Assembly (NCBI GenBank): GCA_964187785.1
Contig: OZ076409.1
Location: 868,001-932,000, forward strand
Origin: Amphiscolops sp. MND2022
Taxonomy: Eukaryota
Length of the DNA stretch: 64,000 nucleotides
Direction of reading: 5' to 3'
Both the position numbers and the translations under genes were made by a program. Below the pieces are notes generated by a model. It saw only the letters and a list, made by a program, of their open reading frames with translations. It did no database searches and was not told where the DNA came from. This document shows, piece by piece, positions 9,881 through 41,469 of this stretch. How positions within the stretch are numbered: position 1 is the first letter of the stretch; the number at the start of each line of letters is the position of its first letter.

Positions 9881-12800
9881 CTTCGCCACGACTCCAATAC
9901 AACCAACTAATATCCGTCCGTCAATATATCAGGTCGGATCCTCCAACAAAAACTTTCCATGAATATCAACAACAATTGATGGGTTACCCCTCTGTTGTCT
10001 GGCAGCAACAGATGGAGAAGGCCATCGTTATTACCTATAATAATACCCATCTGTTCCAAAAACCAATTCCTGTTTGGGATCCTGACTACACAACCACCTT
10101 TACAACCCGATTCAGGCCCATTCCCTTGATCGATGATTACAATCCAACGTACATCGACCCAGATTACGGCAGAGATCCCTATTGGGACATTGAGATTTAC
10201 AACCAGGACCTACTACAATTCCAATACGTCCTGGATGATATAGCCCATTACCAAACCACAATCCATGAAAATCCCCCGATAACCCACAACAAGAAAACCA
10301 GAGCACTAATCGAAAACTGGCAAATGAATGATGGTACTAACCATCCAGTATTCCCGAACCCTTTGGGAACCGAAACTAACGAAGCCAGTACAGAACCAAT
10401 TCCACAATCACTACTGGACGAGAAACAATTCCAAAATATCCTCATTACCAAAGAGGGTGAACCAGACTGTATACCACTTTCGACCAGTATCAACCTTAAA
10501 TGCAAAAAGCGAAAGTTGTACTTCCCGATGGACTTTGGGGAATTAACCATAGACGGCCTAATTGACACTGGAGCACTTTCCAGTGCAATCCCTGAAATGG
10601 ACCTCCGGAAAATCCGACTTCTATCACCACAATCAGTTATCCGAGAAGGTCCGCCTCCGAACTTTCAAATAATGGTCGCAAATGGCCAATTGGAAACTCC
10701 CAAGAGTACCATAGAGCTCAGATTTGAGGTTGGCGACATTGAGTTCCATGAAATCTTCATAGTAATGGAGAACCTAACGGGACCGATCATTGGACTAATG
10801 TTCCTTCAACGAAATCATACAGTACTGGACATGAGACAAGGAATTTTGAATTTCCCGTTCTTTTCAATGCAGCTCAAAACAGCTGACCATAAATACTCAA
10901 ACGTACTTGAACCAATCCTCAACCCTGCTGAAATAACTATTCCGCCAAATGACAGAGTCCTAATTCGGACTAATTCCTTACTATATCCTGAAAATGCTGT
11001 CACTGGGATTTTGCAACCGAGCGACCTTCTACATGAAGAAGGCGACATCACATTCTGCCCAGCCCTAGTCACTTTGAATAATGGCAGTATAGCAATACCT
11101 GTGAATATTTTCACGGACCACCCTTATAAACTAAAAAAGGAACTTCATATAGCCAATTTCTCAGTAATGACGCCAGAACAAATGAAATACGTCAAACCGA
11201 TAGACCCGGCATCAACCTGGCACCTTTTGCAGAATGACCAGGAGCAAGCAGCCCATTATATCAGCAGCCTCATCAAGACCAATAGAAATCCACAAAACTC
11301 CGAAAATTATTGGTTCCCAACTCCAGAGAATCCTGGAAATCCTGAGGAACACACACCTATACAAAAACGAATCCTACGCGAGTTGCAGGCCCTGCAGGAC
11401 CTGGAGACACTCGACCCCACTACAGATGCAGAATCGCGTGCAAAATTCTTAGAAAACTTTGATTGGAAAGATTCCACCCTTACTCCTGAAGAGAAGGAAA
11501 AGATTGAGGAACTGTTAGTAGAATTCCATGACATCTTTGCACGACACCAATTTGATATAGGCATGAACGAGGAATTCAAGGTGAAACTAACGCCTAAAGA
11601 CGATTCCCCAGCCTATAGCCAAAGCCTACCAGCTCCTATCAATCTAAAAGAGGACATCCTAGTTGAATTAGCCATGCTACACAAATATGGCATAATAACT
11701 ACACTCCCATTTTCGGAATACGCGAGTCCAATATTTGCACAAAAGAAGCCGAATGGGAAACTCCGACTCTTGGTTGACTTGAGAAAAATCAACAACCTCA
11801 TCTCGGATGATTATATCAACAATAATCACCCCGTCAGTACACTAGTTGATGCTTCCCAACACTTGGCAGGCAAAAAACTGTTCTGTAAATTAGACTGTTC
11901 GCAGGCATACCACTGCCTACCAATGGCCGACCAACGCTCAATCGAAATGTTGGCTTTCAATTTTGCCAGTCGCACATTCGCTTACAGACGATTAGCACAA
12001 GGCCTTAGTCGGTCACTATCCGCATTCTCAAGTTTCATGAGAGAATACCTTGACAAAGTTATTAAAGCGGATCAATGTGCCCAATATGTGGACGATATCG
12101 GCATCGCAGCCAATGATGTTGATCACCTCATGACGAACCTGAGAGCTACGTTCAAATGCATTCAGGAAGCAGGCCTTAAGTTAACAATGCACAAATGTCA
12201 CTTCGGTGCAAAAGAAATTGATTTTCTCGGACGAACAATTACCCCACAAGGCGTCAAACCCCAGAAACAGAACGTGCAAAACTTTCTGGAAAAGACCAAA
12301 TTCTCGAAGTCGAAAAAGGCTCTACAACGATATTTGGGATTCCTAAACTACTACAGGAATTATGTCCCAAGACTCTCCGAACGCCTTGCTCCATTCTACA
12401 AGATGCTGAAAAGTGACTAAAAAGTCCTAGTATCGAAAGAATTAGTCCAGCAATTCGAAGAAATCAACAAAGCACTAGACAAATGTTGCGACTTGGCCCT
12501 ACAGCAACCCATTCCGAACAAGCAAATAGCACTAATGACTGATGCAAGTTTTGGTGCAGCCGGGTACGCGGTCCTAATTGAAGACGACCCAAGCCAGAAA
12601 TTCACATCACTCAGAAAATCGTATGCACCGGTCGCATATGGATCAAAAACTTTCACCCCAGCACAGATCAAAATGTCAATTTATGCTAAAGAATTTCTTG
12701 CAATTTATTTTGCATTCGAAGAATTCGGACATATCTTTTGGGGTGCGCCGAAACCGGTCATCATCCTTACGGACAACAAAGCTGTAACACGATTTTTCCA

Positions 12801-13794
12801 AACGAAAATAATACCCCCAGCACTGTGGAACGCATGTGACTATGTTATTCAGTTCAATTTTGCCATAGCGCACATCCCGGGGGCACAAAATACAGATGCC
12901 GACTATTTGTCCCGATTGGAAGCAGATCCGAAGGACAAATTGGTGATGAAAATTCGCGAAGATATACAAACACTACCAATTGAAATCAATGTCCAATCTG
13001 CAGGAGTGTCGCAAGAGGAACAAATCTTCTACGCCAATGACGACGATGAGACAGAAGAACAGTTGTGGGCAAGAAAAGAAGCAATCAGGAAAAATCCAAT
13101 AACTGATGAGCCCACTGTTACTATACAAACTCTGTCAACAAATTTAGTCAAGCAACACCCCGATATACAAGCCCGATTGAGGAAGACGAACCAGATCATT
13201 ATCGAGCAATCCAAAGATGCAGTACTACAACAATTGAAAGCAAAACTGCTTCATGAGGATTATTCAGAAAATCTGCACCAGGATGCCCGATACAGACATT
13301 ACGCAAACAACCTGGAACGAATTGTACTTAAGGACGAAATCCTGACAAGGCAATACTTTGATGAAATAGGGAACGTTAAATACCATCAAATTCTGCTCCC
13401 GCAACATTTACTCCAGGAATTACTTCAGTCTCTTCATGGGACAGCACACAAACACCCTGGGATTTCAAAAATGCTGCAGGAAGTTCGACAGAGGTATTAT
13501 TACCCTAGCATGGCTTAGTACGTCAAAAAGTGGGTAGAAGGGTGCGAACAGTGTGCCAGAGACAAGAGAGTCCCTAACGCAACGATCACACCTGAGCTAC
13601 TCAACTTGCCCGAATGGGACCTTGGACCTGAAGACGCCATGCAAATCGACCTATTGCCGAATCTTCCCCCAAGTGGAGGATACGAGAATGTCCTAACAGC
13701 AATCGACGTATTTTCCAGATATTTGTTCGCATATCCTCTCACGGACTCGTCAGCAATCAATGTAGCAACAGCGATCATTGACATCATAACCAAA
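9871..13794 (+). pseudogene. pol: Pol of element 1 (PR-RT-RNaseH-partial IN); stops at 12418 and 13516; truncated in the integrase core
   Basis: LIDTGA protease (~10564), YVDD RT (~12085), TDAS RNase H, HHCC zinc finger (HGTAHKH...CEQC), QIDL first catalytic Asp; one frame with two in-frame stops. Confidence 0.92.
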
Positions 13795-24649: not shown

Positions 24650-25307
24650 ACAAGACGGGAACGTCTGAAGTCGGCGCTATATCCAAGGCTCAAAAAGCGC
24701 AAAACATTTTTTTTGAAAAATACTTTACATTTTCGAATTTTTTTCTTTCGGAAAATGTGGCACAGTGCCGAAAAATGTAAAAGGGGGACCCTTTGGGGTT
24801 TATTAACATAAATTCAGTTGCAAAATATCAAAAAACTCAAAGGGGGGACCCTTTGGGAACATTTAAAAATTTTCGAAAAAAAGTCGCACAGTGCGGAAAA
24901 AATCTAAAGGGGGGACCCTTTAGGCACGTCCGGTTTTGTGGGTTTCCTTGAATAAGTAAAAAGGGGGTCGCTCTACACTCACCCGGTTTTGTAGGTTACG
25001 TTTAAAAAGTAAAAAACCAAAGGGGGGACTCTATGGAGTCAAAAAATATTTTCGAAGAAAGTCGCACAGTGCCGAAAAAATCCAAAGGGGGGACCCTTTA
25101 GTCCCGTCCGGTTTTGTAGGTTACGTTAAAAAGTAAAAAAACAAAGGGGGACCCGTTGGAATAACTTAGATGCGTTTCCCGGGTATTTGTTTAGTTTCTT
25201 TAGTTGAACGTTAACGTTCGTCGCTTCGAGTCTGTCTTTAAAAAAAAAGAAAAAAACGAGTGACAGTAATAGTCGGGCTCTTTCATTGATAAAAGCGCCT
25301 ACTAAAA
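24650..25307 (-). mobile_element. Family E (Helentron-like) copy
   Basis: Same termini and GGGGACCC repeats. Confidence 0.7.
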
Positions 25308-25314
25308 GTAGAAC

Positions 25315-25726
25315 TGTGATGCCATGATGCATGTCCTCAAAGATTTTATAAATCTGAAATACTCTGAACTCTTAACCGAAGAAATTAGTAAATCTAATTG
25401 AATCTAGAAACTAATTATTCTAGAAGAAACTTCATTTAATAGATCCTGTATCAAACTTCCCTGCTTCATCCTGTTGCTGTCACATTATTAATTGATGTAA
25501 CCTACCCTAGCTAATAGAATATATCTACTTGGAGAAATTGAGAATTCTTCCTAGCAATCAGTCTTCTTCCAGCACTTCAAGAACTGAGATCTCAGAAATA
25601 GATTGTACTCTGAACTAGCTAGCTATAAGATAAAAGATAAGACGACTCTGCTGTTAAAATCTTAGACTTCTTATGTCAATTCTAACTTGTATAAAAGAAA
25701 CAACCACCAAACTTTTTAACAGCTCA
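25315..25726 (+). repeat. 5' LTR of element 2
   Basis: Identical to 43004-43415 except ctAat/ctCat. Confidence 0.97.
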
Positions 25727-25728
25727 AT

Positions 25729-25745
25729 TGGTGCGACCACGAAAA
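25729..25745 (+). promoter_or_regulatory. Putative primer-binding site of element 2
   Basis: TGGTGCGACCACGAAAA begins 2 nt after the LTR; cognate tRNA not assigned. Confidence 0.65.
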
Positions 25746-25879
25746 TTCTTCTTTCTCTCCCATTTATTTCACACATCTACAATTGTTGTACACCTTTCCT
25801 CAACTTTCTCATTCGATATCTCTTTGTTCGACACACAGTCTCTCCACCTCTCAACATTGCAAGCCGTTATTAACTTCAA

Positions 25880-26184
25880 CGTTGCAACCAATTTCTACTT
25901 GAAATTGATCCGTGTTGCTATGGTTCTGACTGCGTTCATCAACGTAATTCCTGTCAGTCATACTTTTTGGTTCTGACTACGTTTCTTCACGTAATTCCTG
26001 TCAGTTAAATTTTTCGTTCCAACCACCTCTGAGTGAATTCGTGTTGGCTTTTTTCTTCTATCTTTCTTTCGTTCCAACCGCAGACGTGCGATACGTGTTG
26101 GCCCTTCTACAGTGCTATCCAGCGATTCCTGCTAGTAAAAATCTCTTTGGTTCTAGCCGCTTGGATCAACTTTAAAGTTGGCAC
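25880..26184 (+). ncRNA. Array of six covarying structured RNA motifs in the element 2 leader
   Basis: Units S-GTT-[P1 5 bp]-[P2 hairpin]-ATN-C-S'-T-[P1'] at 25880, 25922, 25969, 26015 and 26070, plus a permuted unit at 26117-26166; compensatory changes in P1, P2 and S:S'. Confidence 0.75.
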
Positions 26185-26424
26185 ACCTATATAACGCATC
26201 TTTTTCCATAACATCATTATAATACTTTTCTTATTCTCTCTTCTATACTACAAACCACATACAAAACTCCTTTAAAACTCTCTTACGGATCCAAATACAT
26301 AACAATTAAGATATATAACACATATATCACACCTCTCTTTACATTACTTTCATTTTTCATACACCTATATACAACAAAATTTTGTATAACTTCTTTGACA
26401 CACTCTTATAGAACTTTATTGTAC

Positions 26425-26547
26425 ATGCCGCCTTCAGTAGACATTGTAGTCAAACTCATTGTCTGCTTTTGATTCTTTGTTGCTATCGTTGCCGGTCTTG
26501 CACTTTTTCTAGACAAATTTTTAATTTCATTCATACCAAAATTTTAA
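26425..26547 (+). pseudogene. 40-codon hydrophobic uORF with an in-frame TGA
   Basis: MPPSVDIVVKLIVCF*FFVAIVAGLALFLDKFLISFIPKF. Confidence 0.35.
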
Positions 26548-26566
26548 AGTACAACCTTTTCCTTCT

Positions 26567-26806
26567 ATGTTAACAAGTATAGTACTACCTCTTTTTGGAC
26601 TACTTAGTATATACCACACTTTCAAAATACTTATCCAATATATACAAAACCCACTTCTTCTTTTCATAAGTATTGTACTTACTATTTTCATACAAGTTAT
26701 TTTCATAGATCAAATTTTACCATATAATTCACAATTCAATACAAAATATCTTCTTTTCCGATACATCTATCCTTTATGGCAATCCTATTGTACTAATCAA
26801 ACCTAA
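26567..26806 (+). CDS. 79-aa small membrane protein upstream of gag
   Basis: ATG start, two hydrophobic stretches, stop 9 nt before the gag ATG. Confidence 0.45.
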   Translation: MLTSIVLPLFGLLSIYHTFKILIQYIQNPLLLFISIVLTIFIQVIFIDQILPYNSQFNTKYLLFRYIYPLWQSYCTNQT

Positions 26807-26815
26807 TATCATATA

Positions 26816-29800
26816 ATGCTCCCCACTCCATTTACAGTCTCTAATGATAAAAGACAAAATCGATCTCTTATACAATATGTAACACCTTTTCTACAAAATA
26901 TTATCTTTCAGTACACTAACCCACTTCCATTTGAAACAGAACCCCATATATTACACACTATTCCATTAATACGAGAACATTGTGATTCCTACTTATATTA
27001 TATCCAATATAAAACACTTGACATAACACCATCACAAACTCCTTTCCAAGTTATTTTTAACCCTGTTAAAGGAATAAACTCTGGAACATTTTATAGAACT
27101 ATACACCCACAGAATATTACACTTTCTATACAAGATGTTTTTCGCACATACATGCAAAAACTCATTGAATTCAATGAACACCAAGACATACCACCTTATC
27201 GTCCTTCTCATTTACAAGAACTTAATCACTTATCTGAATATTTCGAGGTCCCTGATCTTGACACAAAAGTTCAAAGACATGGTAACCCTCATTATTGGCT
27301 ACAACGAGATATATTACAAATAAAGAACTTCGAGTTCAAATTCTTTACCAAAATTACCCTTACAGATGACACTATACCTCAAGTCAAAATTTTTACACAT
27401 TTCTTATTAAAATTCTTTAGATTTAACTACCAATTACTTTGGGAACAGAAAGACCAAAACGCTTATACTAACTTCCCAAAAGCATTAACAGATATAGAAC
27501 TCTTACCATACATCATAGACAATAAAAACAAACACTCACATTACATAGATCTTACTTCATTAAATGTTACACATTTTGAACAAATAAACCTAGATCACAA
27601 CTTTGTACTTGAACATTCTGAAACGTCAGATAGTAGACCTTATATTACATCTGATACTTTACATCAAACAACTCTTCAAACACAAACCTTTAATGTTGAA
27701 CCTCCATATATAAGACAACAATCAGAACAATCAGAACAAGAATCTATAACACAAGAAACACTTGTTCATCTTTTTCAAAATCCTGATTCTCCTCAAGAAC
27801 AATCACCCCAGCCACCACAATCACAAATCTTTGATACGCGACAACCAAATCCGTCTGAAACACATACACTTCCCAATACATCAGAACTTTCTGACGAAAC
27901 AGTACAAAATCCACAAAGTTTTACAATAACTGAGGACTCCAATCTTATAACAATTCCTACCCACAATATCCTCCAACGGACTACAAATCAGAATCAAGAC
28001 AACCCTTCAAATGTCATCACCGACAATACTTCTGTTTTATCCCCATATAATACTAATATTACACAACCCTCTCAGACACAAATACTACCTCCTCGAAATT
28101 ATGATCCACCCCCTATTCCTTCCCAATTTTCAGCTCAAATAAATACTCATGTCTCTCCTCAACCAAGTTCATCAAATACACACTCTATTACACAGAACAA
28201 TAATACAGTACATTTTCAAACACCAACTCCACCTTCATCTTCTGAAATACAAACTTCTACTTATACTCCAGCTCAAACTAACCCAGTACAAACTACACAG
28301 CCTACTTTAAATATTAACACAATTCATTCTAACCCGCCCTCTAACTATACTACAGCCAGTCATCTGTCTCGACCTCCATTACAACCTATATTAACTGACC
28401 CATTATCATACAATCTTACCAGCACCAATCTAAGTCATACCCAACAATCTCAAATAAACTATAACACACACAACCAATTAAACACTCTTTCTTCCCAGCA
28501 TACATCCAATACAATCCCTCCTACATTACAAACCTCTCACTTTCAAATATCAAATCCTCCTTCAACAACAATTAGAACTAACCCTCACTTTCATAATACT
28601 TCAATTATACCTTCAACTAATATTTCAAACCATCCTACGTATAATACAACACCTCCATCTACTATGTCTCATAACACTATGTCACATCCAACATATATTA
28701 ACTCTTCTACTTCTATATCAGAACCCATTAAACCTTTTGATGGACTCGATCACAACTATACACCTGAAGAATATTTACAACATATTGAGTCACGTGTTAC
28801 ATTCTCTTTAGGTTTACAACCTACCGCAGAACATGAATATAAATTTTGGCACGCTCGTCGCATGGCTTTCATACAATGCTCTTTAACAGGTACAGCACTA
28901 AGCTGGTACATCCGTTTAAACGACACTTATAAACATGATTGGCACGCTTTTGTACAAGCTTTCAAAAAACAATTTTCCTCACAAAAGAACGCTTATTATG
29001 CTCAAGTTGAAGCCCTTAACTTAACAAAGAAAGATAATGAAACAGTACGTCATTTTGCACTCAAAGTCCAACAACTGGTTGAAAAAGGCTGGTGTAATGA
29101 GAATGCATCTACTATAAACCTTAAATGTAATGAAATCTTTACAAAAGGACTTCCAAAAACCCTTAAAGATTTTGCAAACAAAAGACAAGTAAAACACACC
29201 TCTACTGTTCTAGAACCTTCGATTCCTTTTCATACTTTGGTAAAACTTGTTGACGCTGAAGATATTGCAAACGACAAAATTAGAACACATGATCTTGCAC
29301 TTGAAATAAACAATATTACAAAACAATTGAACACTCGAACCTTAGATCACCCATCTCAAGAACAACTTATGTATACACAACCCAAAGACCCAAATAACAA
29401 AAATAAACCTGCATATAAAAAATATTGCTCCTACTGTCATAGAACAAATCACTCCATTTCTGCTTGTTTCAAAAAACAACGAGATGATCAAGATAAACGA
29501 GAAGCATATGCTCGATCAAAATCTCCACAAAAATCATTCGTTCAGTACTTTCGTTCCCCTTCAAATGACAAAACAAAACACTATGATAATCGATATCGAA
29601 GTCGAAGTACTTCACGAGACAACTCTTATAACCAAAAATATTCACAAGATCGATACCGTTCTACATCTCGAGATAGAGACCGATTTCGTTATGATAAAAG
29701 TACTACTCCTCCACATTACTCCAGATCAAGATATGACACATATAAACGTGATTCTCGATCTTACCGTTCTCCTTACAGATCTTCTTATAGATCTCCATAT

Positions 29801-30085
29801 AGACAAAATTCTCGTCCTAGATACAGATCACGCTCTTATTCAAGAGATGACAAATTTAACAAATACACAAATTCATATAGACCACCTTCTAGACCAAGAA
29901 ACTCTCGATTTTCCAGATCCAGATCACATTCCAATTCCAGAAATAAAATCAATATAATACAACAACAGGAACAAACTGATCCTATCAAATTTGAGGTACA
30001 CATGTATCACCCAACAGCAATGGCAAATGCTGTCACATCACAAGTTGGTTTTATACTCTATATGTACACACCCCATCAAGTATAG
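26816..30085 (+). CDS. gag: Gag of element 2 (~1080 aa): N-terminal extension, S/T/P/Q/N-rich linker, capsid, CCHC knuckle, RS-rich tail
   Basis: IKPFDG...SLTGTALSWY...FKKQF capsid motifs; CSYCHRTNHSISAC at 29426-29467. Confidence 0.9.
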   Translation: MLPTPFTVSNDKRQNRSLIQYVTPFLQNIIFQYTNPLPFETEPHILHTIPLIREHCDSYLYYIQYKTLDITPSQTPFQVIFNPVKGINSGTFYRTIHPQNITLSIQDVFRTYMQKLIEFNEHQDIPPYRPSHLQELNHLSEYFEVPDLDTKVQRHGNPHYWLQRDILQIKNFEFKFFTKITLTDDTIPQVKIFTHFLLKFFRFNYQLLWEQKDQNAYTNFPKALTDIELLPYIIDNKNKHSHYIDLTSLNVTHFEQINLDHNFVLEHSETSDSRPYITSDTLHQTTLQTQTFNVEPPYIRQQSEQSEQESITQETLVHLFQNPDSPQEQSPQPPQSQIFDTRQPNPSETHTLPNTSELSDETVQNPQSFTITEDSNLITIPTHNILQRTTNQNQDNPSNVITDNTSVLSPYNTNITQPSQTQILPPRNYDPPPIPSQFSAQINTHVSPQPSSSNTHSITQNNNTVHFQTPTPPSSSEIQTSTYTPAQTNPVQTTQPTLNINTIHSNPPSNYTTASHLSRPPLQPILTDPLSYNLTSTNLSHTQQSQINYNTHNQLNTLSSQHTSNTIPPTLQTSHFQISNPPSTTIRTNPHFHNTSIIPSTNISNHPTYNTTPPSTMSHNTMSHPTYINSSTSISEPIKPFDGLDHNYTPEEYLQHIESRVTFSLGLQPTAEHEYKFWHARRMAFIQCSLTGTALSWYIRLNDTYKHDWHAFVQAFKKQFSSQKNAYYAQVEALNLTKKDNETVRHFALKVQQLVEKGWCNENASTINLKCNEIFTKGLPKTLKDFANKRQVKHTSTVLEPSIPFHTLVKLVDAEDIANDKIRTHDLALEINNITKQLNTRTLDHPSQEQLMYTQPKDPNNKNKPAYKKYCSYCHRTNHSISACFKKQRDDQDKREAYARSKSPQKSFVQYFRSPSNDKTKHYDNRYRSRSTSRDNSYNQKYSQDRYRSTSRDRDRFRYDKSTTPPHYSRSRYDTYKRDSRSYRSPYRSSYRSPYRQNSRPRYRSRSYSRDDKFNKYTNSYRPPSRPRNSRFSRSRSHSNSRNKINIIQQQEQTDPIKFEVHMYHPTAMANAVTSQVGFILYMYTPHQV

Positions 30086-33000
30086 TACAAAGAGACAACC
30101 CATCTAGACTAGAAATTGCATTCCTTCTAGATAGCGGTGCTTCTATTTCTGTACTCAATTATCCAACATATATAACTCTTACAAAACTTCTCGATATCAG
30201 ACCAAATCACACCTCTGATGTTGGACCAACTAGAAATTCCAAAACACTAACTGTTGCAAACCAAACTGAAGTTCCTATTTTACATTACGCAAATATCATT
30301 CTGAACACCACTATTGACGAAAACTCTCGATACTTTTCAGTACCCTTCGCAGTAGCTTATATTAAATACAATATCCTTGGTACACCATTCTTCGAAGACA
30401 ATATACAAAACATAAACATACAAGACTTTACACTCGAATTTAAATACCAATCAAAAACACACCCAAATTATGCAAAATTTACAACACTTCTATCTAAAGA
30501 TTATCCATACTTCTCTTACATTTATAGAATTAACTCAAAAACTCAAATACGTTTAAAACCCAAATCTTCCAAAATTGCACACTTTCCTATCCAAAATTAT
30601 CATAATCTTCATTTTACAACTACACCACAAAACCACTTCTTTCCTTCAGTACCTCATACCTATTTTGCTACCAAATTCCGTACAACTTTCAATTTTATTG
30701 AAGTTTTTACAGACGACAAGCCAGACATATGTGCAACTATTATTCAAAACACTTCAAAACATATTGCAACGCTACCTACAGGACATATTGGCTACATCGA
30801 AGTTCCAATTACTAATGAAAGACCTAAATTCTTCCAAGTTAACGACATTAATACTTTAATACCAAATGTTACTCATACTTATCATCCTGATATTACCGAA
30901 CCACTTCCACAAACCAATTATATTGTACAATATGATGATCCTACAACCCCTCCTCCACAATTCTCTTTACATCAAATTTATATGACAAATGACAACATTC
31001 CACACCAAACTTCTTCCCTATATAACGTTCAACCTACTTCTCATACCTCAGAAAAACGCATTTTCCCTTCTCTTCCATATACTTCTGAAAATCTGAAATT
31101 TATTAACAAATTTAACTTTCAATTTTCCGACCTTACAGATTCAGAATACATTACTCTTTGCAATATGCTCCTCAAATATAAAACATGTTATGCAACTCAT
31201 AAAAACGATGTTGGAAAAATTTCAACACCCTTTCGTATCCGACTTAAACCAAATGCTCAACTTATGACACAACGTCCTTCCAAAGTCCCTATTCATTATC
31301 GAGACAAATTAAATGCACTTCTCAAAGAACTTGAAAAATATAACATTATTAAACAAATTGGTTCTTCTCCTCAAGACAAACCCGTTTATGGCACAACTTA
31401 TTTAAATCCTCTTATTATAATCCCCAAGGGAGATACAATAAAATGTGTATTAGACGCTCGACATCTTAATTCCAATACAGAACAGTCTGATGAATCTTGG
31501 CCTATTGAACCTCTTGCTCCACAACTAGCACGCGCAAACAAAAAGTACAAATCTGCTATTGACCTTATGTATGCCTATGCACATACAGCTCTTGACGAAG
31601 ATACTATAAAACTTACTAGCTTCTCTTCAGGAGACAAACTTTTCGCTTTCATACGAGGCTTTTATGGTCTCAAAGGACTACCAAATTTCTTTACAAAACA
31701 AATGTCTACTTTCTTTAAAACTCTTATAGAACAAGGTTTCGCTCTTGTCTACATTGACGATATATTACTTTTATCCGACTCTAAAGAACATATGTTTCAA
31801 CTCATAGAACAATTACACATTATCAGTACAAAAAATAATCTTAAACTAGCCCCTGAAAAATCCTTTTTCATGCTCCTCAATGTCAAATTCCTTGGACATG
31901 AAATTGGTTACAATACAATTAAACCAATTCATTCAAAAATTGCAGCTATTCATAAGATCCCTTCTCCAACTGGCAAAGTTGCCCTAATGAGTTTCATTGG
32001 CGCACTCAATTTTTACACTAAATTTATTGAAAAACTACATATTAACCTCAAACCGTTTTACGATCTTTTACATGAAAACACTCCTTGGAAATGGACAGAC
32101 GAACACGAAAGTCTATTTCAAAAACTTAAAATGTCTCTCACTTCTGAAACAGAATTAACAATACCGAATACGAAACATCCATTTTTCATTACAGTTGACG
32201 CTTCCCTTATTGGATTAGGCGCTGTCTTATTCCAGTTAAATGAACAAAACAAAATGAAAGTCATATCGTACAACTCTCGTATACTTAGCCCACAAGAACA
32301 AAAACTCTCCACACTTGATAGAGAACTCCTTGGTATAGTACACGCACTTCAAATCTATGAATTTCTTATCATAGGTTCTCCACATCCAATACACATTTTC
32401 ACTGATCACAAACCTTTATTACATTGTTTTACAAAGAAAGGTAATCTCAGCCCCCGTTTCTATAGAGCTCAAATGCAATTGACAAAATTTTCAAAACTCA
32501 AAATAATTCACACCCCTGGAAAAAATCTCTCTGTTGCCGATATGTTGAGTCGCTCATTCACAAAAGCTGAATTACAACTTAACCAATTAAAACATAAACA
32601 CCTCCCACCACAAATCGATTTTGCACTTTTACAAGATAACACTCTTAAACCTGTACATTACTTAATAAAACACGAAGAAATTTTACCCCATCAAAAACAT
32701 GACTCCCATCCAATTCTTGCTGATTATGGTACAGATCAATTCTCTATTCGTATCAATGATAAAGGAAATGACATTATTGTAAAACCCTTACACTCTTTCT
32801 CATTCAAATCTGTAACTCCTTTTCAAACCAAATTTAAGACACCTACAAAAAAGAACAACAAAACCCTTCATCAACAATCTCTCTTACTTAATGATACTGA
32901 CGTTACAAGTGACGACGAAGATCATATTTACACCAGAATTCCAAAATCTGACTCTTCCTTCTCACAAGATACTACATTACAAACAGAAAATTATTCTACT

Positions 33001-35010
33001 CTTAAACAACCAAGTTACAACACCTCACAGAAATCAATTTCTGCAATAAATGTACAACCAAATTTACCATCTCTCACACACTGTCAACAAATTATACCTT
33101 TTTATGATACATCTTTCTTTAAGTACAAAAACTATTTTCAAGGTTTCTTCCTCCCCGATGATTACTCATTAGACATAAAAACTCTTCAACAACAACAATC
33201 TCAAGATCCGGTTCTCAGAACTGTTTATTCTTGGTTACTAAACAATGAAAAACCCGAATTTATAACACCTCTTATCACTGGTACTCCATTTCTACATGTA
33301 TATTACAAAAGATTTTCACAACTTTTCATTGATGAATCCACTAATCTTATTAGTCTGTACATTACAAACCCCACTGTTAATAACCAATCCTCTACTCCAA
33401 ATTTTGTACAAGATACTATTCGCATATGCCTACCTTTTCGACTATTTAAAACTGTCTTTAACAAACTTCATGAACATTCTCACACTGGTATGAAAATCAC
33501 CTACAATACATTCAAACAATGTTACTATATCCCATTCCTTGAAAAATGGCTTTCCTTTTTCATACATGACTGTATTGAATGTCAACGTAATAAACACTTC
33601 AATATGAAAATTCAAACTGCTCCTACACAATCATTTTCAGAACATGCTCCATCTTTCAACCATAGAATCTCAATGGACACTAAAGGACCTATTAATCCTC
33701 CTTCTCATAATAAATCCTATATACATGTAATAATTGACGCTTTTAGTCACTTTGTTGTTACAGTACCCATCAAATCAAACAACGCAAAGACTGCTATCAA
33801 AACTCTCCTACACCATTGGATTATTAAATTTGGACCACCCATATACCTTGTCACTGATCGTGGATCAGAATATGTTAACAAAGAAATGGCACATCTTTGT
33901 ACACTTATGGGAATTCGTCATTCTCCTAGAACAGCTTATTCTCCTTGGACAAATGGCCTTGTTGAAGTACAAAACAGAAATCTTGGTACTCATCTTCGAA
34001 TGTTCCTACATGACACACCTAAAGATTGGGCATTTCAAGTCCATATGTACGCTTATGCACATAATTCACAACCACTTTCAGAACTCAATGTTTCACCTCA
34101 CGAAATTGTTTTCCATACTAGACCCAGAATACCCCTCACATTTGATTTAAACCTTAATCGAGATACCTCCAAGACATGTATTTCACGTTATTGTTCTCAA
34201 CTCCCTGAACACTCTCACTATGATAAATCAGACTTAAACCCATTCTTCTATAAAACACTCTCAAAACCCATTCCCCAATGGTTTCTCGCTGTAGAAACTG
34301 CTATGTTACAAATTTACTCTACAGTCTACGAAAACACTCTACGAAAAATTAACTCACACGCATACATTACAAAAACTTACCACGAAGGTAAACCCCTTCC
34401 CATTGATACCTTTGTTTTAAAACGCAATTTTACACATGTTCACTTTTCAGACAAACTCAAACCCCTTCGGATTGGACCATATAAAATTCTTGACAGACTA
34501 TCAGACGTCACATATGCATTACTTGCACAAGATGGCTCTATAGTACACGTTCATAGAAATCATTTAATCCCATATTACCCTAAAGAACCACTCTTGTATC
34601 CACATTTGCGTAATTTTATGCGCTTTTCAGACACAACTCAAAACCAAATTCCACAAATTACCAGATATGCAAACAGTGATTCTTCCCCGTTTAACTCTGA
34701 TGAATCTTTGTCTGAAGAAGATTCTCAAACATTTATGACACCACCATCATTTAGTACATCCAATCAAAATACACCATCTATAACATCCAATGACAAGTCT
34801 TTACCTTCCTCAACCAATGACAACTCCTTATATAAACATATAATTAATACCCCTCACACTAATGTCCCTAGTGACAGATCGAGACACCCTTCTAACAACC
34901 AAACAACTTCACTTCCTCCTCTAATTGACAGAACCACAAAAACCACTTATAAACTGCGACAACAACCCAAATTAGATTATAGACTTTTTATTACACCTTC
35001 CCAACTGTAA
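29995..35010 (+). CDS. pol: Pol of element 2 (PR-RT-RNaseH-IN-GPY/F), in the -1 frame relative to gag
   Basis: Frame is stop-free from 29995 (manual translation): FLLDSGAS at ~30130, NILG, YIDD (~31750), TVDAS, HEHSH..CIEC, D-D-E (MDTKG/TDRG/LVE), RIGPYKI. Confidence 0.95.
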   Translation, partial: GTHVSPNSNGKCCHITSWFYTLYVHTPSSIVQRDNPSRLEIAFLLDSGASISVLNYPTYITLTKLLDIRPNHTSDVGPTRNSKTLTVANQTEVPILHYANIILNTTIDENSRYFSVPFAVAYIKYNILGTPFFEDNIQNINIQDFTLEFKYQSKTHPNYAKFTTLLSKDYPYFSYIYRINSKTQIRLKPKSSKIAHFPIQNYHNLHFTTTPQNHFFPSVPHTYFATKFRTTFNFIEVFTDDKPDICATIIQNTSKHIATLPTGHIGYIEVPITNERPKFFQVNDINTLIPNVTHTYHPDITEPLPQTNYIVQYDDPTTPPPQFSLHQIYMTNDNIPHQTSSLYNVQPTSHTSEKRIFPSLPYTSENLKFINKFNFQFSDLTDSEYITLCNMLLKYKTCYATHKNDVGKISTPFRIRLKPNAQLMTQRPSKVPIHYRDKLNALLKELEKYNIIKQIGSSPQDKPVYGTTYLNPLIIIPKGDTIKCVLDARHLNSNTEQSDESWPIEPLAPQLARANKKYKSAIDLMYAYAHTALDEDTIKLTSFSSGDKLFAFIRGFYGLKGLPNFFTKQMSTFFKTLIEQGFALVYIDDILLLSDSKEHMFQLIEQLHIISTKNNLKLAPEKSFFMLLNVKFLGHEIGYNTIKPIHSKIAAIHKIPSPTGKVALMSFIGALNFYTKFIEKLHINLKPFYDLLHENTPWKWTDEHESLFQKLKMSLTSETELTIPNTKHPFFITVDASLIGLGAVLFQLNEQNKMKVISYNSRILSPQEQKLSTLDRELLGIVHALQIYEFLIIGSPHPIHIFTDHKPLLHCFTKKGNLSPRFYRAQMQLTKFSKLKIIHTPGKNLSVADMLSRSFTKAELQLNQLKHKHLPPQIDFALLQDNTLKPVHYLIKHEEILPHQKHDSHPILADYGTDQFSIRINDKGNDIIVKPLHSFSFKSVTPFQTKFKTPTKKNNKTLHQQSLLLNDTDVTSDDEDHIYTRIPKSDSSFSQDTTLQTENYSTLKQPSYNTSQKSISAINVQPNLPSLTHCQQIIPFYDTSFFKYKNYFQGFFLPDDYSLDIKTLQQQQSQDPVLRTVYSWLLNNEKPEFITPLITGTPFLHVYYKRFSQLFIDESTNLISLYITNPTVNNQSSTPNFVQDTIRICLPFRLFKTVFNKLHEHSHTGMKITYNTFKQCYYIPFLEKWLSFFIHDCIECQRNKHFNMKIQTAPTQSFSEHAPSFNHRISMDTKGPINPPSHNKSYIHVIIDAFSHFVVTVPIKSNNAKTAIKTLLHHWIIKFGPPIYLVTDRGSEYVNKEMAHLCTLMGIRHSPRTAYSPWTNGLVEVQNRNLGTHLRMFLHDTPKDWAFQVHMYAYAHNSQPLSELNVSPHEIVFHTRPRIPLTFDLNLNRDTSKTCISRYCSQLPEHSHYDKSDLNPFFYKTLSKPIPQWFLAVETAMLQIYSTVYENTLRKINSHAYITKTYHEGKPLPIDTFVLKRNFTHVHFSDKLKPLRIGPYKILDRLSDVTYALLAQDGSIVHVHRNHLIPYYPKEPLLYPHLRNFMRFSDTTQNQIPQITRYANSDSSPFNSDESLSEEDSQTFMTPPSFSTSNQNTPSITSNDKSLPSSTNDNSLYKHIINTPHTNVPSDRSRHPSNNQTTSLPPLIDRTTKTTYKLRQQPKLDYRLFITPSQL

Positions 35011-35111
35011 TCTGGTCATTCTCCCTGTTGGCTTACTCAAACCTAGTCACTCTGGTTGAATGAATGTTGAATAAATGAAATAAAACCCATAACAAGTTAT
35101 CTTAAAGATAA

Positions 35112-36368
35112 CCTGTTGAAAACACTTCAACAATCCTGGATCCTCCCTCTGATATCTCTCCATCAGCTCCAAGTATTCCTTCTACACCTGAATCTTCAGT
35201 ATCAAACAGCATAAACTCTAGTAATGTAACTCCTACTACTCCTTCTAAAAGACCCAGATCATACATCTCTGAAACCTCTTCTTCTTCACTTCTTCACAGA
35301 CCACCTATAACCGAAATTCCTATAAACACTCGTCCCCAACAAACTCCTATTAACACTCCTATTATACACATACCAAACCCTGAAAGTGTTGAACAATACG
35401 TAACATACAAACACCCTACAGCTATCAAAACTGTTAGACTCCAACCTCAACTTAATCTAGTACAAATTCCTGATACTGAATATACGAAACTACCTCCATT
35501 AAAATTACCTTCAGAACTTAGCACTACAGAACTTAGTACTACTTCTTCAAAACTTTATCCACCCTTAAAACCTCTTCGAAAACCCTCTACATCACTCTCA
35601 AATCTCTTAGACAATAATACTTCTGACTACGCTCCATCACAAGACACAAGCTCATTTTTTGTACCCAGACATAGATATAATCTTCGTGATCTTCCTTCAC
35701 GTAGACTTAGTACAGACACTTCCACACTCAATTTTTCCGCTCTTTCTAGCAATTCTGCATTACGACTTGTAAGACAACACGCTCAACCATTGTCCTCTGA
35801 CCCATCATCTTCAGAACTCTTTCAATCTCCTTATTTTACTTCCGGTTTTGAAACCGCTTCATTACTCTCATCTAATCCACAAACTGCATTCCTATCAGGA
35901 GATCTTTTTTCACAAGTAGTAATCCCTACTCCTGTTCCTGCACATATTAGACTACCTGAATACTATACTGCAGAACATTCTAGACCTCCAACCCCAAATT
36001 TTGCTGATTATCCACTTCGAGTCGATGGTATAACTATCTACGACCCACAAAACGATCCTCGATTTCCAATTCTCGCAGAACGTTTTATTAATAACAACGA
36101 TCTCTTATCTCATAAACGTAAAGAAACAGAACTAAAACGTCTCCAGACACCAAATTTAGAACTTAAATTTGAAGTCAAAGTCAAATTTCAAGGATTAAAT
36201 CCTCATCCAATATTTCACGTTTCTAAAATAGAACATAAAACCTCTCCTGCTCCTTTTGAAGTAGTACATATTGAATTTGAACGCGATCTTAATATACCCA
36301 CTATCACATATGGCAATATTGTCTTCTGTAACCCATACTCTGGTCTCAAATATAAGACATCCTTTTAA
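35112..36368 (+). CDS. Met-less ~418-codon open frame (P/S/T-rich N-part, globular C-part), unknown product
   Basis: Stop-free from 35112 to 36368; the ORF track shows only the part after TTG 35790; codon style matches gag and pol. Confidence 0.6.
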   Translation, partial: PVENTSTILDPPSDISPSAPSIPSTPESSVSNSINSSNVTPTTPSKRPRSYISETSSSSLLHRPPITEIPINTRPQQTPINTPIIHIPNPESVEQYVTYKHPTAIKTVRLQPQLNLVQIPDTEYTKLPPLKLPSELSTTELSTTSSKLYPPLKPLRKPSTSLSNLLDNNTSDYAPSQDTSSFFVPRHRYNLRDLPSRRLSTDTSTLNFSALSSNSALRLVRQHAQPLSSDPSSSELFQSPYFTSGFETASLLSSNPQTAFLSGDLFSQVVIPTPVPAHIRLPEYYTAEHSRPPTPNFADYPLRVDGITIYDPQNDPRFPILAERFINNNDLLSHKRKETELKRLQTPNLELKFEVKVKFQGLNPHPIFHVSKIEHKTSPAPFEVVHIEFERDLNIPTITYGNIVFCNPYSGLKYKTSF

Positions 36369-39014
36369 ATCCTACACAACCTCTTATCTAACACCTATAA
36401 TTCTTCTCTTACATTTATTTAAATCTACCTTTTCCATACCTATAGTACTCCCTGATACAGAAAACTATCTTCCATCGGATGACCCGAATATTACAAATCT
36501 CATGGTTTCTCATTATGACTGTGCAAAACAACACAATCTCAGACAATTTAATCTACTTAATGTAAAACAATGCACTGAAGCTCCTTCTGACATTAAACAT
36601 GCAAGTGTTAAAGCCCGTGTATATGTCCGCGCAAAAGCTAAACGTATCAAAGCTTTCAAATGTGTTGCTTATGCAAAGAAAGAAAGGAAAATATGCTTTC
36701 AAGGATCTGTCAAATACCGTCGTGTTGATCGTACAGTATGGAATCATAATACATTACCGCTTCCTGTTACTCTTGATCCGGTAGAATGTAAAAACATTAT
36801 AAGACATTTAAATGGTACAAATGATAAAATATTGAACAACCTTAACTACAACAAAACATTTACACTCTTAGAAGATCATTACTTTCAAGAACGTTTAGAA
36901 CAATATCAAACTCCTTTCACTGTATATCAATTGAACAAAATGTATACAGGTACATTTACATTCATGCCTGCTGATAAAAACTGGATATATGACCCTACAA
37001 AAAACCCTTATCATAACTGTCCTGCTCATCATCAATTCGAAGTCAACTTAGTTAGTTGGCGACTAGAAGTTTCCGAAATAGAACTTACATATGATGACAC
37101 ATCAAATGACATGATAATTGACATACATTACCCTGCTATTTTGCAGACGGCTTCTGTAAACCCACTACAAAAAATCCTTTTACTCTTGTTTGGTTTAATG
37201 ATGATTACTGTCTAATTTTTACCCTACAAGACTTTATTGGACGTATGACTAAAATTGAAGATAGATATTGGATTGAAACAGACTCTTTTGTACATTCTCC
37301 ACATCCAGTAAAATCTCAAACTGCTTCTGGCATAAAAGGTACAGAACATCCTTATGTTCATGCCCCTCATACACAACATCCAAATAACCCAAGTCTTTCA
37401 AGATTTGAAGTTTTTCCTACAGCACAAACCTTTTGTGGTAAACCAGACCCTCTCTATTCTACACAATACTCAGACCTTTTTGTTACATACACTGATGGTT
37501 TTAATATGCATACAGGACAACCTAATCCTCATTCCATAATTGATGAGTATATCTCTGGTAAAATAGTATTGGACACTTCAAATAACAAATTTGTATTCCC
37601 TGCATTAAATGTATCAAACAATTTCGCTACCATTGATTATGATGCACATATAAACACCAAAATTGACTACACTATTAATCATGTTTTTCGATCAATGATA
37701 GTACAAGAACTAAATACTCTTCATACAATATGTGAACTAGAACGAAATCAACTCCTTACAATACTCGCAATGTCAGTACAAAATCCTCAACTTGCTGGTT
37801 TCCTTCTAACTGGTAATAGAAGTAACTTCTTATACGTTGAAGGCTCAACCGCCTGGCTTTATGACTGTCCTCATTTTTTATCTCCTTTATACAAAGCAGA
37901 TAGATGTTTTGACCGTATACCCATACATTTTAAAGATACCTTAATGTACGTTGATCCTATTACAAGACAAACTTATGATTATGCTACACCAATTACATGC
38001 GATAATAATCCGCGTAACATTATTGAACTAGACCCTGATTCAGATGATCAAGACTTTTACATTCTTGGACCTGAACCTATCAAACGTAAACCTCCACTAA
38101 TGTTTACTCCCTCACAAATCAAAACTACAATACGCCCTAATACTTTTACAGCCCAAGATGCTGGTATATATTCAAATGCAGAACTTGATCAATTTTGGAA
38201 CCGTATTTTATTTTCTAAACACTCTGATTCTACACTCCAATTGCTAGGTAAAGCTCTTAGTTATTCATTCATTTCATCTAATACTCCAAACTACGATGCA
38301 GATTCCCCTCAAGACTCTGGTAATCCTTACAATACATTACGAATAGGACTACATGATAAACTCTTGAACTTAACCCCTCTTTTCACACCTACATGGTTCT
38401 CTGATGTTTTTATTGCACTTTTTGGATACCCTTGTTACATTCTTACACAATGTGGCATATACTTTTCTACATTTCTTTTTATACAAGCTACTCTTACACT
38501 TATTGTTAAACTTTACAAAACAATATCTATTAAATATAATCTAAAAAATAATATTACTTTACTTAGTTCTATTGCACATGGTTTTTTTAATGTTCTTACA
38601 GCACGAATGGTCAGTGACCTACATGAGGCTCAAAACAAAAAACCCAAAAGTACACTTTCCAAATCCAAATCTTTAGATAACTTTATTGACACTTCTCCCA
38701 ATTTAATTAACCATTCTACAGATGTTACTTCCCCTCCACCTTTTTATACTAAACGATCTAACAAAATTCAATTTCCTAAATTTAACTATTTTCCGAAACG
38801 ACACCACAATTCTCACCATAAAACGACTCCACTTCCTTTCTCTTCTGTCCAACATCCCCCACTTCCTAATTATACTCATAAAAACTTTCACTCGAATGAC
38901 AATCTAACTACTCAACATGACACTTTAATTAACAATTCTGTCACTTCTACTACGGATACACCAATTAAAATCTATTCACGAATAAACTATCCTTTTCCTC
39001 CTCCATCTTCTTGA
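36310..39014 (+). pseudogene. env: Env: class III (chuvirus/herpes gB-type) fusion glycoprotein, ~900 aa, frameshifted at ~37121
   Basis: Signal-like LTPIILLLHLF; VSHYDC; LPCYFADGFC...TLVW (read in the second frame from 37122); FCG..LYSTQY; INTKIDY; ICELER..LAMSVQNP..G; CFDRIPI..YVDPITR..PITC; C-terminal TM and tail. Confidence 0.8.
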
Positions 39015-39263
39015 ACTCTCTCCCAGTTCTTCTGTAACTCTCTTCCAGAACACTCGCCTGCTATTTCTTCACAATTGCTACTCCTCCACCACTTGAAACT
39101 CTTGCAGAAATTCATCTTCCTCAATCTAATAATACTTCTCTCATAATAACCATCTTCAAAAACTCTTCAACTAAAGTTGACAAATCCACTCGTTAGTGTA
39201 ATTTATAGTACTTTAACTTTAAAGTGCTAAGGCCTCTTGGAATAGATAACACTGTGACTGTTG

Positions 39264-40607
39264 ATGCTTTCTCAAACAATGACACAAGCACAAATTGACC
39301 TACAAACACAGCTTGAACAAGCAACCCCAACAGATCTTATAACAAGACCTCTTTCTAATGATTCTCCTGTTCTCTATATTGATACTTCTGAAAAAACACC
39401 TCCAACTTTTCTTGAACCAATGGAACACACAAAAGTTGAAAATGAAAATCCAAAACCTACTCCCCCACAAGATGATACTGATCATACACAATCGACACCA
39501 CCTCCTCCGAAAAAACGATATGAAATAATGAAAGATCCAATCTTTCTTTCATCACCAATATATCCTCCTTCAATACCTTCAAAAATTTCACTTTGCACGA
39601 ATCGCGATGATCATTTGATCTCAATTCTTTCCACTGATGATTTCATCTTTAAAGCACAACTAACTTCTCTATATATGCATCCTAAGGACTACTCATTTCG
39701 CTTATATGACAAAAATCAAGACTTCTTCACATCCATTGCTTCCAAAATAATGGGTCCATACCAATATTGGCTCGAGAATGGAGTTAAAATTTTCTCTCTC
39801 CAATTCAATTTTCTTAGACCTTCTATCTACGATCTCAAAACGGATGAATCTGATCCATCCTTTCTCTCTATAGCACAGAAAGCTTCTCATCATCAGACAT
39901 ATACTAAATTTCTACAATACACGAAACCACAAAATTATATTTTTGTCAATTACAAATATACATCACCGTTCACAATGACAAATATGTACACTCTCGACCA
40001 CTCCTGTATAACAGGCTATCTTCGGAACTATGACCCTATAAAGCAATACTTCTGTTTGCTTCCATATAACAATACTTCACGTCCACTTATCGTACCTCAA
40101 GAATATCTCATACATTACGATGATTTTTTGTTGCCTTGCAACATCCCTACTCAAATTGCAAAACCTCTTACTGTTATTAAACACCTCGTTTCTTCTCCAC
40201 TTGACGATAAAGATAGAACATACTATACAGCACTCTACAAACAAACGTATTCCTACAATGAACTCCTCTTTATATCTGCCAAAACTATCTCTTTCATGGT
40301 ACAAGCTGAACAAAAAACTGAACATAAATCACACACTTCACCCATCAAAAACACCCATGACAAACTTTCCTCTGTATTAAACAATCGAACACTTCGAGAC
40401 ATAACAAATTTACTGGAACCCTATAAACGAAACTCTTCTGAAACACCTATCACAACACTCACACATATACTCCACTGCTATGACAGAACACACAAACTCC
40501 TTCAGACACTCGATTTAGATTCTCAACGCATCACTCAATCATCCCAAGCAATTCAATCTGCTTTGGAAACTATAACTACTCTTTTTAATTCAACTAATCT
40601 TCATTAA
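39264..40607 (+). CDS. Orphan accessory ORF (~447 aa) of element 2
   Basis: Long intact ORF inside the LTR boundaries; no recognised family. Confidence 0.75.
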   Translation: MLSQTMTQAQIDLQTQLEQATPTDLITRPLSNDSPVLYIDTSEKTPPTFLEPMEHTKVENENPKPTPPQDDTDHTQSTPPPPKKRYEIMKDPIFLSSPIYPPSIPSKISLCTNRDDHLISILSTDDFIFKAQLTSLYMHPKDYSFRLYDKNQDFFTSIASKIMGPYQYWLENGVKIFSLQFNFLRPSIYDLKTDESDPSFLSIAQKASHHQTYTKFLQYTKPQNYIFVNYKYTSPFTMTNMYTLDHSCITGYLRNYDPIKQYFCLLPYNNTSRPLIVPQEYLIHYDDFLLPCNIPTQIAKPLTVIKHLVSSPLDDKDRTYYTALYKQTYSYNELLFISAKTISFMVQAEQKTEHKSHTSPIKNTHDKLSSVLNNRTLRDITNLLEPYKRNSSETPITTLTHILHCYDRTHKLLQTLDLDSQRITQSSQAIQSALETITTLFNSTNLH

Positions 40608-41016
40608 ACTTCTCTACAGGTAATATAAAGTTTTAAATTTTCTTCTCTGGTACATTCTATGGTACAGCTGTGGCACATTTTACAAGGTATTTTCATTTTT
40701 ATTTAACGAAAATCCTTACTTTTGAATGAAATCTCAGGACTGTTTTTTAAGTACACTAATTTTTCCTACAGTACATGTCAAAAACTAACTATTTTTTACT
40801 CAAAACACTACAATACAAGACATACAAGACAATATAAAATAACACTACATATGGTACATTATAGCACCCATTTTTGTTGTACATCTTTGACTTGATATTG
40901 TCATTCTTCTTACACTTCCTTTGTTTTAGAAACATCCATTCTTCCTTCTCCTTCATCCAAATTCTTTCAGAACATCCCAACTTCTCTTTCTTCGTATTCT
41001 TCAAACTCTCGTCATA

Positions 41017-41469
41017 ATGGCTCCAAATGCTGAAACAAACGACATTCTAACAATGACTTCAGAATTTTCGAAAGTGCATAGTCTCAAAGCCGCCATATTT
41101 CATACCATGGCCTTCAAACTCTCGCTTGAGATTCACAAAAACAAAATTACGCCAAAATGCCTCATCGCTTTCTTAAAAGTACTCTACAACGTCACGCAAA
41201 TAAAGAAAAAGAAAATCACTTTCGAGCAATATTCGCGAATCCATCTTCAAGGACCTAAAATTGCCATTTGTGAAACGGCATCTAATGTTGTTTTCGTCCT
41301 CAATTCATCTTTCACGTCAAAGGATCAGTACTTTCGTACTGCTATCCAAGAAGCTACAGATGCTTTTAATAATATGTTACAAGATTTCGGGTATACTCAA
41401 CAACTAGAACTTTATGACCCGATACAACATCAACCTCATCCTCCATCGCAAAACTCTCTCTTTCAATAA
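41017..41469 (+). CDS. Orphan accessory ORF (150 aa) of element 2
   Basis: ATG in a good context (ataATGG), protein-like composition. Confidence 0.6.
   Translation: MAPNAETNDILTMTSEFSKVHSLKAAIFHTMAFKLSLEIHKNKITPKCLIAFLKVLYNVTQIKKKKITFEQYSRIHLQGPKIAICETASNVVFVLNSSFTSKDQYFRTAIQEATDAFNNMLQDFGYTQQLELYDPIQHQPHPPSQNSLFQ

Follow-up and report, generated by a model that had tools for sequence, protein, structure and literature searches.

The 64-kb stretch of DNA analysed here, referred to as the window, contains on its plus strand (25315–43415) an intact, env-carrying LTR element of 18.1 kb that belongs to the Ty3/gypsy type and has a Metaviridae-type gene order. All features by which a Ty3/gypsy element with env is recognised were found, namely an LTR pair, a primer-binding site (PBS), gag, pol with RT, RNase H, and integrase in this order, and an env-like ORF; all of them lie on the plus strand. 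The 5' LTR (25315–25726) is 412 bp long, starts with TG and ends with CA, and differs from the 3' LTR (43004–43415) at one of 412 positions, and a 4-bp target duplication (GAAC) is present on both flanks of the element. The PBS (TGG..., 25729–25742) starts two bases past the 5' LTR. It is followed by the gag ORF (26816–30085), which encodes 1089 amino acids with a Retrotrans_gag domain, one CCHC knuckle, and an Arg/Ser-rich tail, and by the pol ORF (30982–35010). The env-like region (36271–39014) consists of two ORFs that match the Pfam profile Monjiviricetes_fusion, the second (37245–39014) with an E value of 2.5e-19 and 69.1 bits at a cut-off of 27, and the first (36271–37215) with an E value of 7.9e-4, which is under the Pfam cut-off. 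The two matches cover profile positions 25–137 (front) and 289–509 (middle), and the split between the ORFs may be a real break or an intron. Further ORFs besides gag, pol, and the env-like pair are present in the element.

Within the host assembly of 1.07 Gb, thousands of candidates for the element were counted, of which the best 40 are 98–100% identical; judged from sequence, the element is a young, very abundant, env-carrying retroelement of the Ty3/gypsy type. Its interior (25727–43003) is composed on the plus strand of 34.4% A, 31.2% T, 10.0% G, and 24.4% C, corresponding to a GC skew of about -0.45. Since G makes up only 10% of this strand, little structure is expected in the element RNA apart from a few islands that contain G, among them the hairpin row described below. 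Near the 3' end of the element (41683–41904), a 37-nt unit with a possible TCACA/TGTGA stem is repeated in tandem five to six times, each copy containing the word CTGAC that also forms a helix strand in some of the leader hairpins (P1a of class A, see below). Repeats with a GGGGGGACCCTTT core flank the element on both sides (24746–25150 and 44825–44876), from which it follows that the element was inserted into another repeat. A second, unrelated retroelement occupies 8456–13518 in three ORFs (DUF1759 with a zinc knuckle, aspartyl protease, RT, RNase H, and an integrase zinc domain), and it contains no match to the hairpin-unit model R1 introduced below.

The leader between the PBS and the gag ATG at 26816 is 1089 nt long and harbours a hairpin array at 25880–26184. 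Five of its units, U1 to U5, follow a standard design on the plus strand, consisting of a 5' flank (C/G)GTT, the 5' strand (P1a) of a 5-bp helix P1, a P2 hairpin of 3–7 bp, a six-base bulge AT-N-C-(G/C)-T, and the 3' strand of P1 (P1b). P2 stacks directly on P1 at the 5' strand, and on the 3' strand the two helices are separated by the bulge. Two classes can be distinguished: class A units (U2 and U3) combine the flank GGTT and the P1 CTGAC/GTCAG with the bulge ATTCCT, and class B units (U1, U4, and U5) combine CGTT and CCAAC/GTTGG (GCAAC/GTTGC in U1) with a bulge AT-N-CGT. U1 (25880–25918) has the bulge ATCCGT and a 7-bp P2, and its bulged hairpin is the minimum-energy structure with a z-score of -3.6. 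U2 (25922–25957) and U3 (25969–26004) both have a z-score of -1.5, and U3 is a recent duplicate of U2 (83% direct repeat). U4 (26015–26047; z +0.4) is a weak unit with a 3-bp P2 and a 7-nt bulge. In U5 (26070–26101; z -0.3), the P2 CGCA/TGCG is closed by a GACG tetraloop. The units follow each other with a regular period of 42–50 nt and are separated by pyrimidine-rich linkers. G occurs 5–13 times per 50 nt within the array as against 0–4 times over the following 250 nt.

The array ends with a sixth unit, U6, which is part of a three-way junction at 26112–26184 of the plus strand that comprises an outer helix P0, the permuted unit itself, and a side hairpin H. P0 is formed by GTGC (26112–26115) and GCAC (26181–26184), and a T (26116) separates GTGC from the permuted unit (26117–26166). 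The latter contains, in this order, the 3' strand of P2 (P2b; ATCCAGCG, 26117–26124), the bulge ATTCCT (26125–26130), P1b (GCTAG, 26131–26135), a loop of 13 nt that closes P1 (26136–26148), the 5' flank GGTT (26149–26152), P1a (CTAGC, 26153–26157), and the 5' strand of P2 (P2a; CGCTTGGAT, with one bulged T, 26158–26166). Hairpin H (CAACT/AGTTG) follows at 26167–26180; in the main family it is perfectly palindromic over its 14 nt, and in diverged sister copies it is mostly asymmetric and longer-stemmed, with a TTT loop. U6 is thus made of the unit's own parts, with the strand open at P2 and closed at P1. An earlier, sequence-only reading had listed these parts and taken them for a circularly permuted copy of the motif, and upon re-reading, the sequence was found to be as described. 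The statement that U6 has the same elements as the other units holds for GGTT, ATTCCT, a 5-bp P1, and P2, but its P1 mixes class A and class B pairs and has a G-C at a pair that is A-T in nearly all standard units.

Folding supported this architecture. The minimum-energy fold predicted by RNAfold for 26100–26196 is exactly the proposed three-way junction, and U6 alone (26116–26176) adopts the same fold with a z-score of -2.3. For each of the six units folded singly, the expected bulged hairpin was the minimum-energy structure. The junction as a whole has a z-score of -1.16, with 26 of 200 shuffles folding as well, and the whole array reaches -1.28 in a minimum-energy fold that uses pairing between U2 and U3. 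Thermodynamic predictions thus lend modest support to units, junction, and array. A strict descriptor was also applied, for which AT.C.T, a 5-bp Watson–Crick P1 with GTT in front of it, and at least 4 bp in P2 were required. On the plus strand of the 64-kb window, it matched four standard units (U1, U2, U3, and U5) and two permuted arrangements, one being U6 and the other the junction between U2 and U3; zero matches were obtained on the minus strand of the window and in 200 dinucleotide shuffles. U4 fails the descriptor because of its 7-nt bulge and 3-bp P2. The observation of a permuted sixth copy is confirmed.

A covariance model of the standard unit (model R1) was built from 24 units and gave 104 matches in 151,580 bases comprising the window and the sister loci, every one within a leader array. 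In the 64-kb window it recovered only U2 (42.8 bits), U3 (44.3 bits), U4 (28.4 bits), and U5, and U1 was unreported at E<=1. Among 99 distinct units, hardly any variation is seen in GTT, in the bulge, and in most of P1; position 4 of P1a is A in 99 of 99 units, and position 2 of P1b is T in 97 of 99. The sequence of P2 varies from unit to unit with complementarity kept, and the pair P2a4–P2b1 covaries independently of class (AT 23, TA 20, GC 20). The arrays of the sister copies, in each of which three to seven standard units were detected, share a layout: a class B unit with a long P2 comes first, a class A unit stands 42 nt further on, class B units follow every 45–48 nt, and the last standard unit, with an ATACGT bulge, precedes the U6 domain. 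The GACG loop of U5 (CGCA-GACG-TGCG, 26079–26090) is kept in 13 rows, all of which represent the last standard unit of sister copies, whereas the loops of other units vary.

Diverged relatives of the element were sought in the same genome with the 14-mer of the PBS carrying a different base six positions upstream. This altered context gave 37 genome matches, compared with one for a reversed control, and 30 of them were fetched as loci. The leaders of the sister loci are 65–77% identical to that of the window. Alignments typically run from the PBS to query position 519–541 (window 26185–26207), which is just beyond the U6 domain, and resume only near the start of gag; the hairpin block is therefore the sole conserved part of the leader after the PBS across sister families. 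By BLAST, a U6 domain could be aligned in 17 of the 30 loci (one of them, L046, is a copy of the main family), giving 18 copies. A covariance model of the U6 domain (model R2) added two damaged domains, one with a deletion (L059) and one with many non-pairs (L037), and had no match at E<=1 in the remaining 11 of 30 loci. One locus (L032) carries two leader copies in opposite orientation that are 94% (near the main family) and 80% (diverged) identical over the U6 domain. Three sister copies (L034, L035, and L036) lie within 17 kb on the same strand, a few kb apart; such proximity points to local tandem duplication, and they do not count as independent in pair statistics. A copy without U2–U6 (L043) was considered as evidence on whether these units are needed and was set aside because it is decayed and its gag frame is truncated. 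When metagenomes were scanned with the core of the permuted unit, four loci were returned; they lie in unrelated sequence, look like chance hits, and contain no match to model R1.

The resulting U6 alignment contains 19 rows from one genome, that is, the window and 18 sister copies from 17 loci, several of which are non-independent or decayed (including the local duplicates L034 and L035). Standard pairs are formed in 92.2% of its 474 pair cells, as against 22.6–39.9% in six slid controls in which partner columns were shifted by 1–3. In P2, 93.4% of cells pair, and three pairs have changed on both sides, namely 28–68 (AU 9, GC 6, GU 3), 29–67 (AU 10, GC 8), and 31–65 (GC 15, AU 1, GU 1). The inner P2 pairs are A-U/G-C in one group of copies and G-C/A-U in another, with G-U intermediates, and the junction-proximal pair forms a series G-C, A.C, A-U. 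As read from these sequences, the compensatory changes probably represent two or three events, not many. P1 (GCTAG/CTAGC) pairs in 94.7% of cells with hardly any change in its sequence; its closing loop is variable in sequence and about 7 to 13 nt long, yet GGTT immediately 5' of P1a is kept in 16 of 19 rows. RNAalifold recovered P1 and the side hairpin from the 19-row alignment and missed P2 and P0. Mismatches of the G-T type (17) are about as frequent as those of the A-C type (16), and wobble pairs therefore do not identify the folded strand. The 30 top copies of the same family are too similar for covariation and have 34 variable sites, of which nine fall within the 205 of 331 positions that are structural (helix, flank, or bulge; binomial p 3e-5); among the variable sites common to at least two of these near-identical copies, one of 10 is structural.

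Taken together, the structure of U6 and its permutation are very probably real and selected. Because the pairing of P2 is kept with compensatory changes in diverged sisters, selection appears to act on the pairing and not on a DNA word. The suggestion that a single-stranded fold is selected is in this respect borne out by the pair cells and by P2 changed on both sides, and the permuted pairings, which could have been lost in sister copies, are retained at a leader identity of 65–77%.

U6 is a copy of the bulged hairpin whose strands are joined via P1 and not via P2, and a three-way junction anchors it behind a row of four to seven standard units, at their 3' side. This structured block occupies the leader from the PBS to where the homology between sister families breaks off. 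Such a permuted unit would be generated if a junction were captured that consists of one tandem unit's 3' half, the linker, and the 5' half of its neighbour, after which the helices of U6 would diverge with their pairing maintained. U2 and U3 share P1 and have nearly the same P2, and a permuted unit can therefore form across their junction, from the 3' half of U2 over the linker to U3's 5' half; this junction satisfies the permuted descriptor and folds accordingly. The permuted model R2 gave weak matches of 15–23 bits at standard-unit junctions in five sister loci. Capture of a junction between two tandem units is thus the probable origin of U6 and would be the simplest route to it. As the P1 of U6 differs at a pair that is invariant in the standard units, U6 may bind a different partner from that of the standard units.

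With respect to function, the row is tentatively read as a multivalent Gag-recognition domain of the genomic RNA that would act in packaging and perhaps in dimerisation, a reading based on position and analogy to which a probability of roughly 0.4 is assigned. It is suggested by the position between PBS and gag, by the fact that the array is the only conserved G-containing block of the leader, by the periodic multivalent design, and by the GACG loop. As is typical of packaging signals, a structured cis element (25880–26184) that is conserved in sister families lies between PBS and gag. GACG tetraloops contribute to packaging and dimer stability in alpha- and gammaretroviruses, according to the available text of PMC516450. 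Gag, with its CCHC knuckle and Arg/Ser-rich tail, would recognise the row multivalently, leading to packaging of the genomic RNA, and recognition would involve the sequence-conserved GTT, bulge, and P1, with P2 as a mere spacer helix. Dimerisation could be coupled to packaging through the conserved GACG loop of U5. A splice-donor scan of the leader by a simple consensus score gave no strong or convincing donor, the best score being 7 of 9 at 25944 and 25991, which correspond to the border of P2b and bulge in U2 and U3. Contigs of run X1 on the element (of unknown kind, with low depth, and mostly 95–99% alike) revealed no joint in the leader, a result to which no weight is given. Candidate counts, which are not copy numbers, are alike for leader (2763), pol (2668), env (2915), and LTR (2528), and they contain no sign of leader-only non-autonomous derivatives, which would be an expected hint of a cis role in packaging.

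Other functions have been weighed against this reading. The row might be an array for a host factor, in which each hairpin binds a cellular RNA-binding protein for CTE-like nuclear export, stability, or localisation, and in which the permuted copy shows the same helix–bulge–helix site from the other end. The lobes of the CTE, as far as described in the available part of PMC4330390, relate to each other as the standard units do to U6, and many regularly spaced copies suit avidity for any protein. However, the CTE is one long hairpin located close to the genome's 3' end, and separate hairpins in a 5' leader without a match to any Rfam family make such a host-factor role unlikely. It is similarly doubtful, although compatible with packaging, that the row primarily is a dimerisation element or conformational switch that refolds in a shifted register or pairs between two RNAs, with U6 fixed in the shifted state. 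P1, and often also the first pairs of P2, are common to neighbouring units, many alternative 'permuted' pairings of adjacent standard units were found by the scanner in the window and the sister loci, and inter-unit pairing of U2 and U3 enters the minimum-energy fold of the whole array; moreover, GACG loops such as the conserved one of U5 contribute to retroviral dimers (PMC516450, available text), and hairpin H is palindromic in the main family. The complementarity of P2 within units is nevertheless kept where neighbours differ (U1 and U5), which favours the standard register, and the palindrome is lost in sister families. Control of translation by an IRES-like or scanning-modulating structure for gag could make use of a long leader with pyrimidine-rich linkers between units and four upstream ATGs (25920, 26425, 26567, and 26776); the array, however, ends about 630 nt upstream of the gag ATG, and the stretch between them is unconserved among sister families, so that this role seems distinctly unlikely.

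The sequence-only reading had inferred selection on an RNA tertiary fold. Spelled out, each unit would be compactly folded, (C/G)G of the flank and C(G/C) of the bulge would form a 2-bp pseudoknot, and the intrinsic activity would be self-cleavage or ligand binding. The underlying GG:CC rule stands insofar as a pair between flank position 1 and position 5 of the bulge is possible in 85 of 97 distinct units (C-G 56, G-C 22, T-G 6, G-T 1); likewise, 37 of the 38 cells for the two pseudoknot pairs in the U6 alignment show CG or UG, and by reasoning, a TT linker over a 5-bp helix would be geometrically plausible for an H-type pseudoknot. The rule is, however, wholly linked to the P1 class and amounts to at most one event: class B units with GG/CC and class A units with CG/CG do not occur, and the mutual information of flank position 1 is equally high with P1 columns. 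The analogy to hammerhead and twister ribozymes was not upheld, as no Rfam 15 family matched at gathering score in the window and no ribozyme or riboswitch matched 25700–26300 at E values up to 10, and five to eight self-cleaving units in a leader would be expected to destroy the template RNA. A catalytic or ligand-binding fold is hence regarded as very unlikely. Somewhat less remote, albeit improbable, is that the unit is an undescribed modular RNA tertiary motif, a naturally permutable mini H-type pseudoknot that serves as a tandem scaffold for capsid assembly; a hairpin of 33–37 nt would then carry its 5' GTT tail along P1, the preceding two bases would pair with the bulge, and tandem units would nucleate capsid assembly on the genomic RNA. 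At the DNA level, a regular short-period repeat with P1, GTT, and bulge conserved as sequence might constitute a row of protein-binding sites in the 5' UTR, in a place corresponding to the 12 sites of the Su(Hw) insulator of Drosophila gypsy (PMC2374998, available text). Yet P2 changes freely and stays self-complementary in the units and in U6, which is needless for a duplex-DNA site, the permuted order preserves RNA geometry and not linear DNA order, and the Su(Hw) consensus word YRYTGCATAYYY does not occur in the window, where chance would give 0.49 matches, so that such a row is most improbable here. The absence of any function, with neutral tandem duplications and U6 as a leftover of unequal recombination, could be argued from the recent duplication of U2 and U3 and from the varying unit number among sister copies (three to seven detected). 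It is strongly disfavoured, since pairing is kept across families with leaders only 65–77% identical, variable sites avoid structural positions, and the block is the sole part of the leader that is conserved after the PBS. Two likenesses noted by eye, one of six bases between bulge/P1b of class B and the presumed 3' end of the primer tRNA and the other between class B GTTCCAACC and a pseudouridine-synthase target word, were rejected as misfits to the conserved hairpin.

Compared with vertebrate retroviruses, the cis-acting RNA signals of Ty3/gypsy-type elements and of invertebrate-style endogenous retroviruses are, to our knowledge, almost unknown. In a limited search of the literature on env-carrying gypsy-type elements and on packaging stem-loops of retrotransposon leaders, no such array was found to be described. 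A survey of env-carrying gypsy-type elements (PMC13524379) makes no mention of packaging, stem-loop, UTR, or leader in its main text as available, and the PBS 12-mer is absent in either orientation from seven supplementary files of this errantivirus survey. The array is a cis-RNA of a retroelement leader in which an unusual module recurs periodically and one copy is naturally permuted. It offers a repetitive and phylogenetically supported RNA module in which evolution has already sorted conserved parts (GTT, bulge, and P1) from free ones (P2, loops, and linkers), which makes a direct test of the RNA choice of the element's Gag easy. Models R1 and R2 can be used on related genomes.

Several known systems share single traits with the array. 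In alfalfa mosaic virus, 3' hairpins flanked by AUGC bind coat protein, as do MS2-type hairpins, and conserved unpaired bases are used for recognition by the capsid protein. The leader array resembles such rows in its repeated small hairpins with variable stems and conserved unpaired bases; virus class, motifs, and location differ, and we know of no permuted copy in them. With retroviral Psi/dimer-linkage regions, it shares the location between PBS and gag, the presence of several stem-loops, and a conserved GACG tetraloop, here in the unit beside U6 (PMC516450, available text). In contrast to Psi, the array consists of periodic, near-identical bulged hairpins and a permuted copy, with no sequence homology and no Rfam match. 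The CTE of type-D retroviruses is a two-fold symmetric stem-loop with a protein site in each lobe, one lobe being closed by a loop and the other holding the 5' and 3' ends, and it likewise presents one protein-binding motif in two connectivities (PMC4330390, available part). Unlike in the CTE, the copies of opposite connectivity do not lie in one extended hairpin; the array has separate hairpins in a 5' leader, and U6 is one of the arms that meet in a three-way junction. In Drosophila gypsy, also an env-carrying Ty3/gypsy element, the 5' UTR contains 12 protein-binding sites of the Su(Hw) insulator in 340 bp and is thus comparable as a tandem array of short conserved elements (PMC2374998, available text). 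That array repeats a duplex-DNA word without hairpin complementarity, whereas complementarity is conserved here. Naturally permuted ribozymes are known from the hammerhead types I–III and from twister. Like them, U6 and the standard units have the same helices and unpaired elements in different strand connectivity, but no catalytic core was recognised, no covariance model matched at an E value of 10, and tandem copies lie in the template. That permutation marks ribozyme folds, as the sequence-only reading had assumed, does not hold in general, as a helix–bulge–helix protein site can be closed at either end, for which the CTE lobes, as depicted in the available part of PMC4330390, provide a parallel. 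Permutation of connectivity is hence not exclusive to ribozymes; capture of a junction between tandem repeats would also give rise to it in a module that most likely binds protein.
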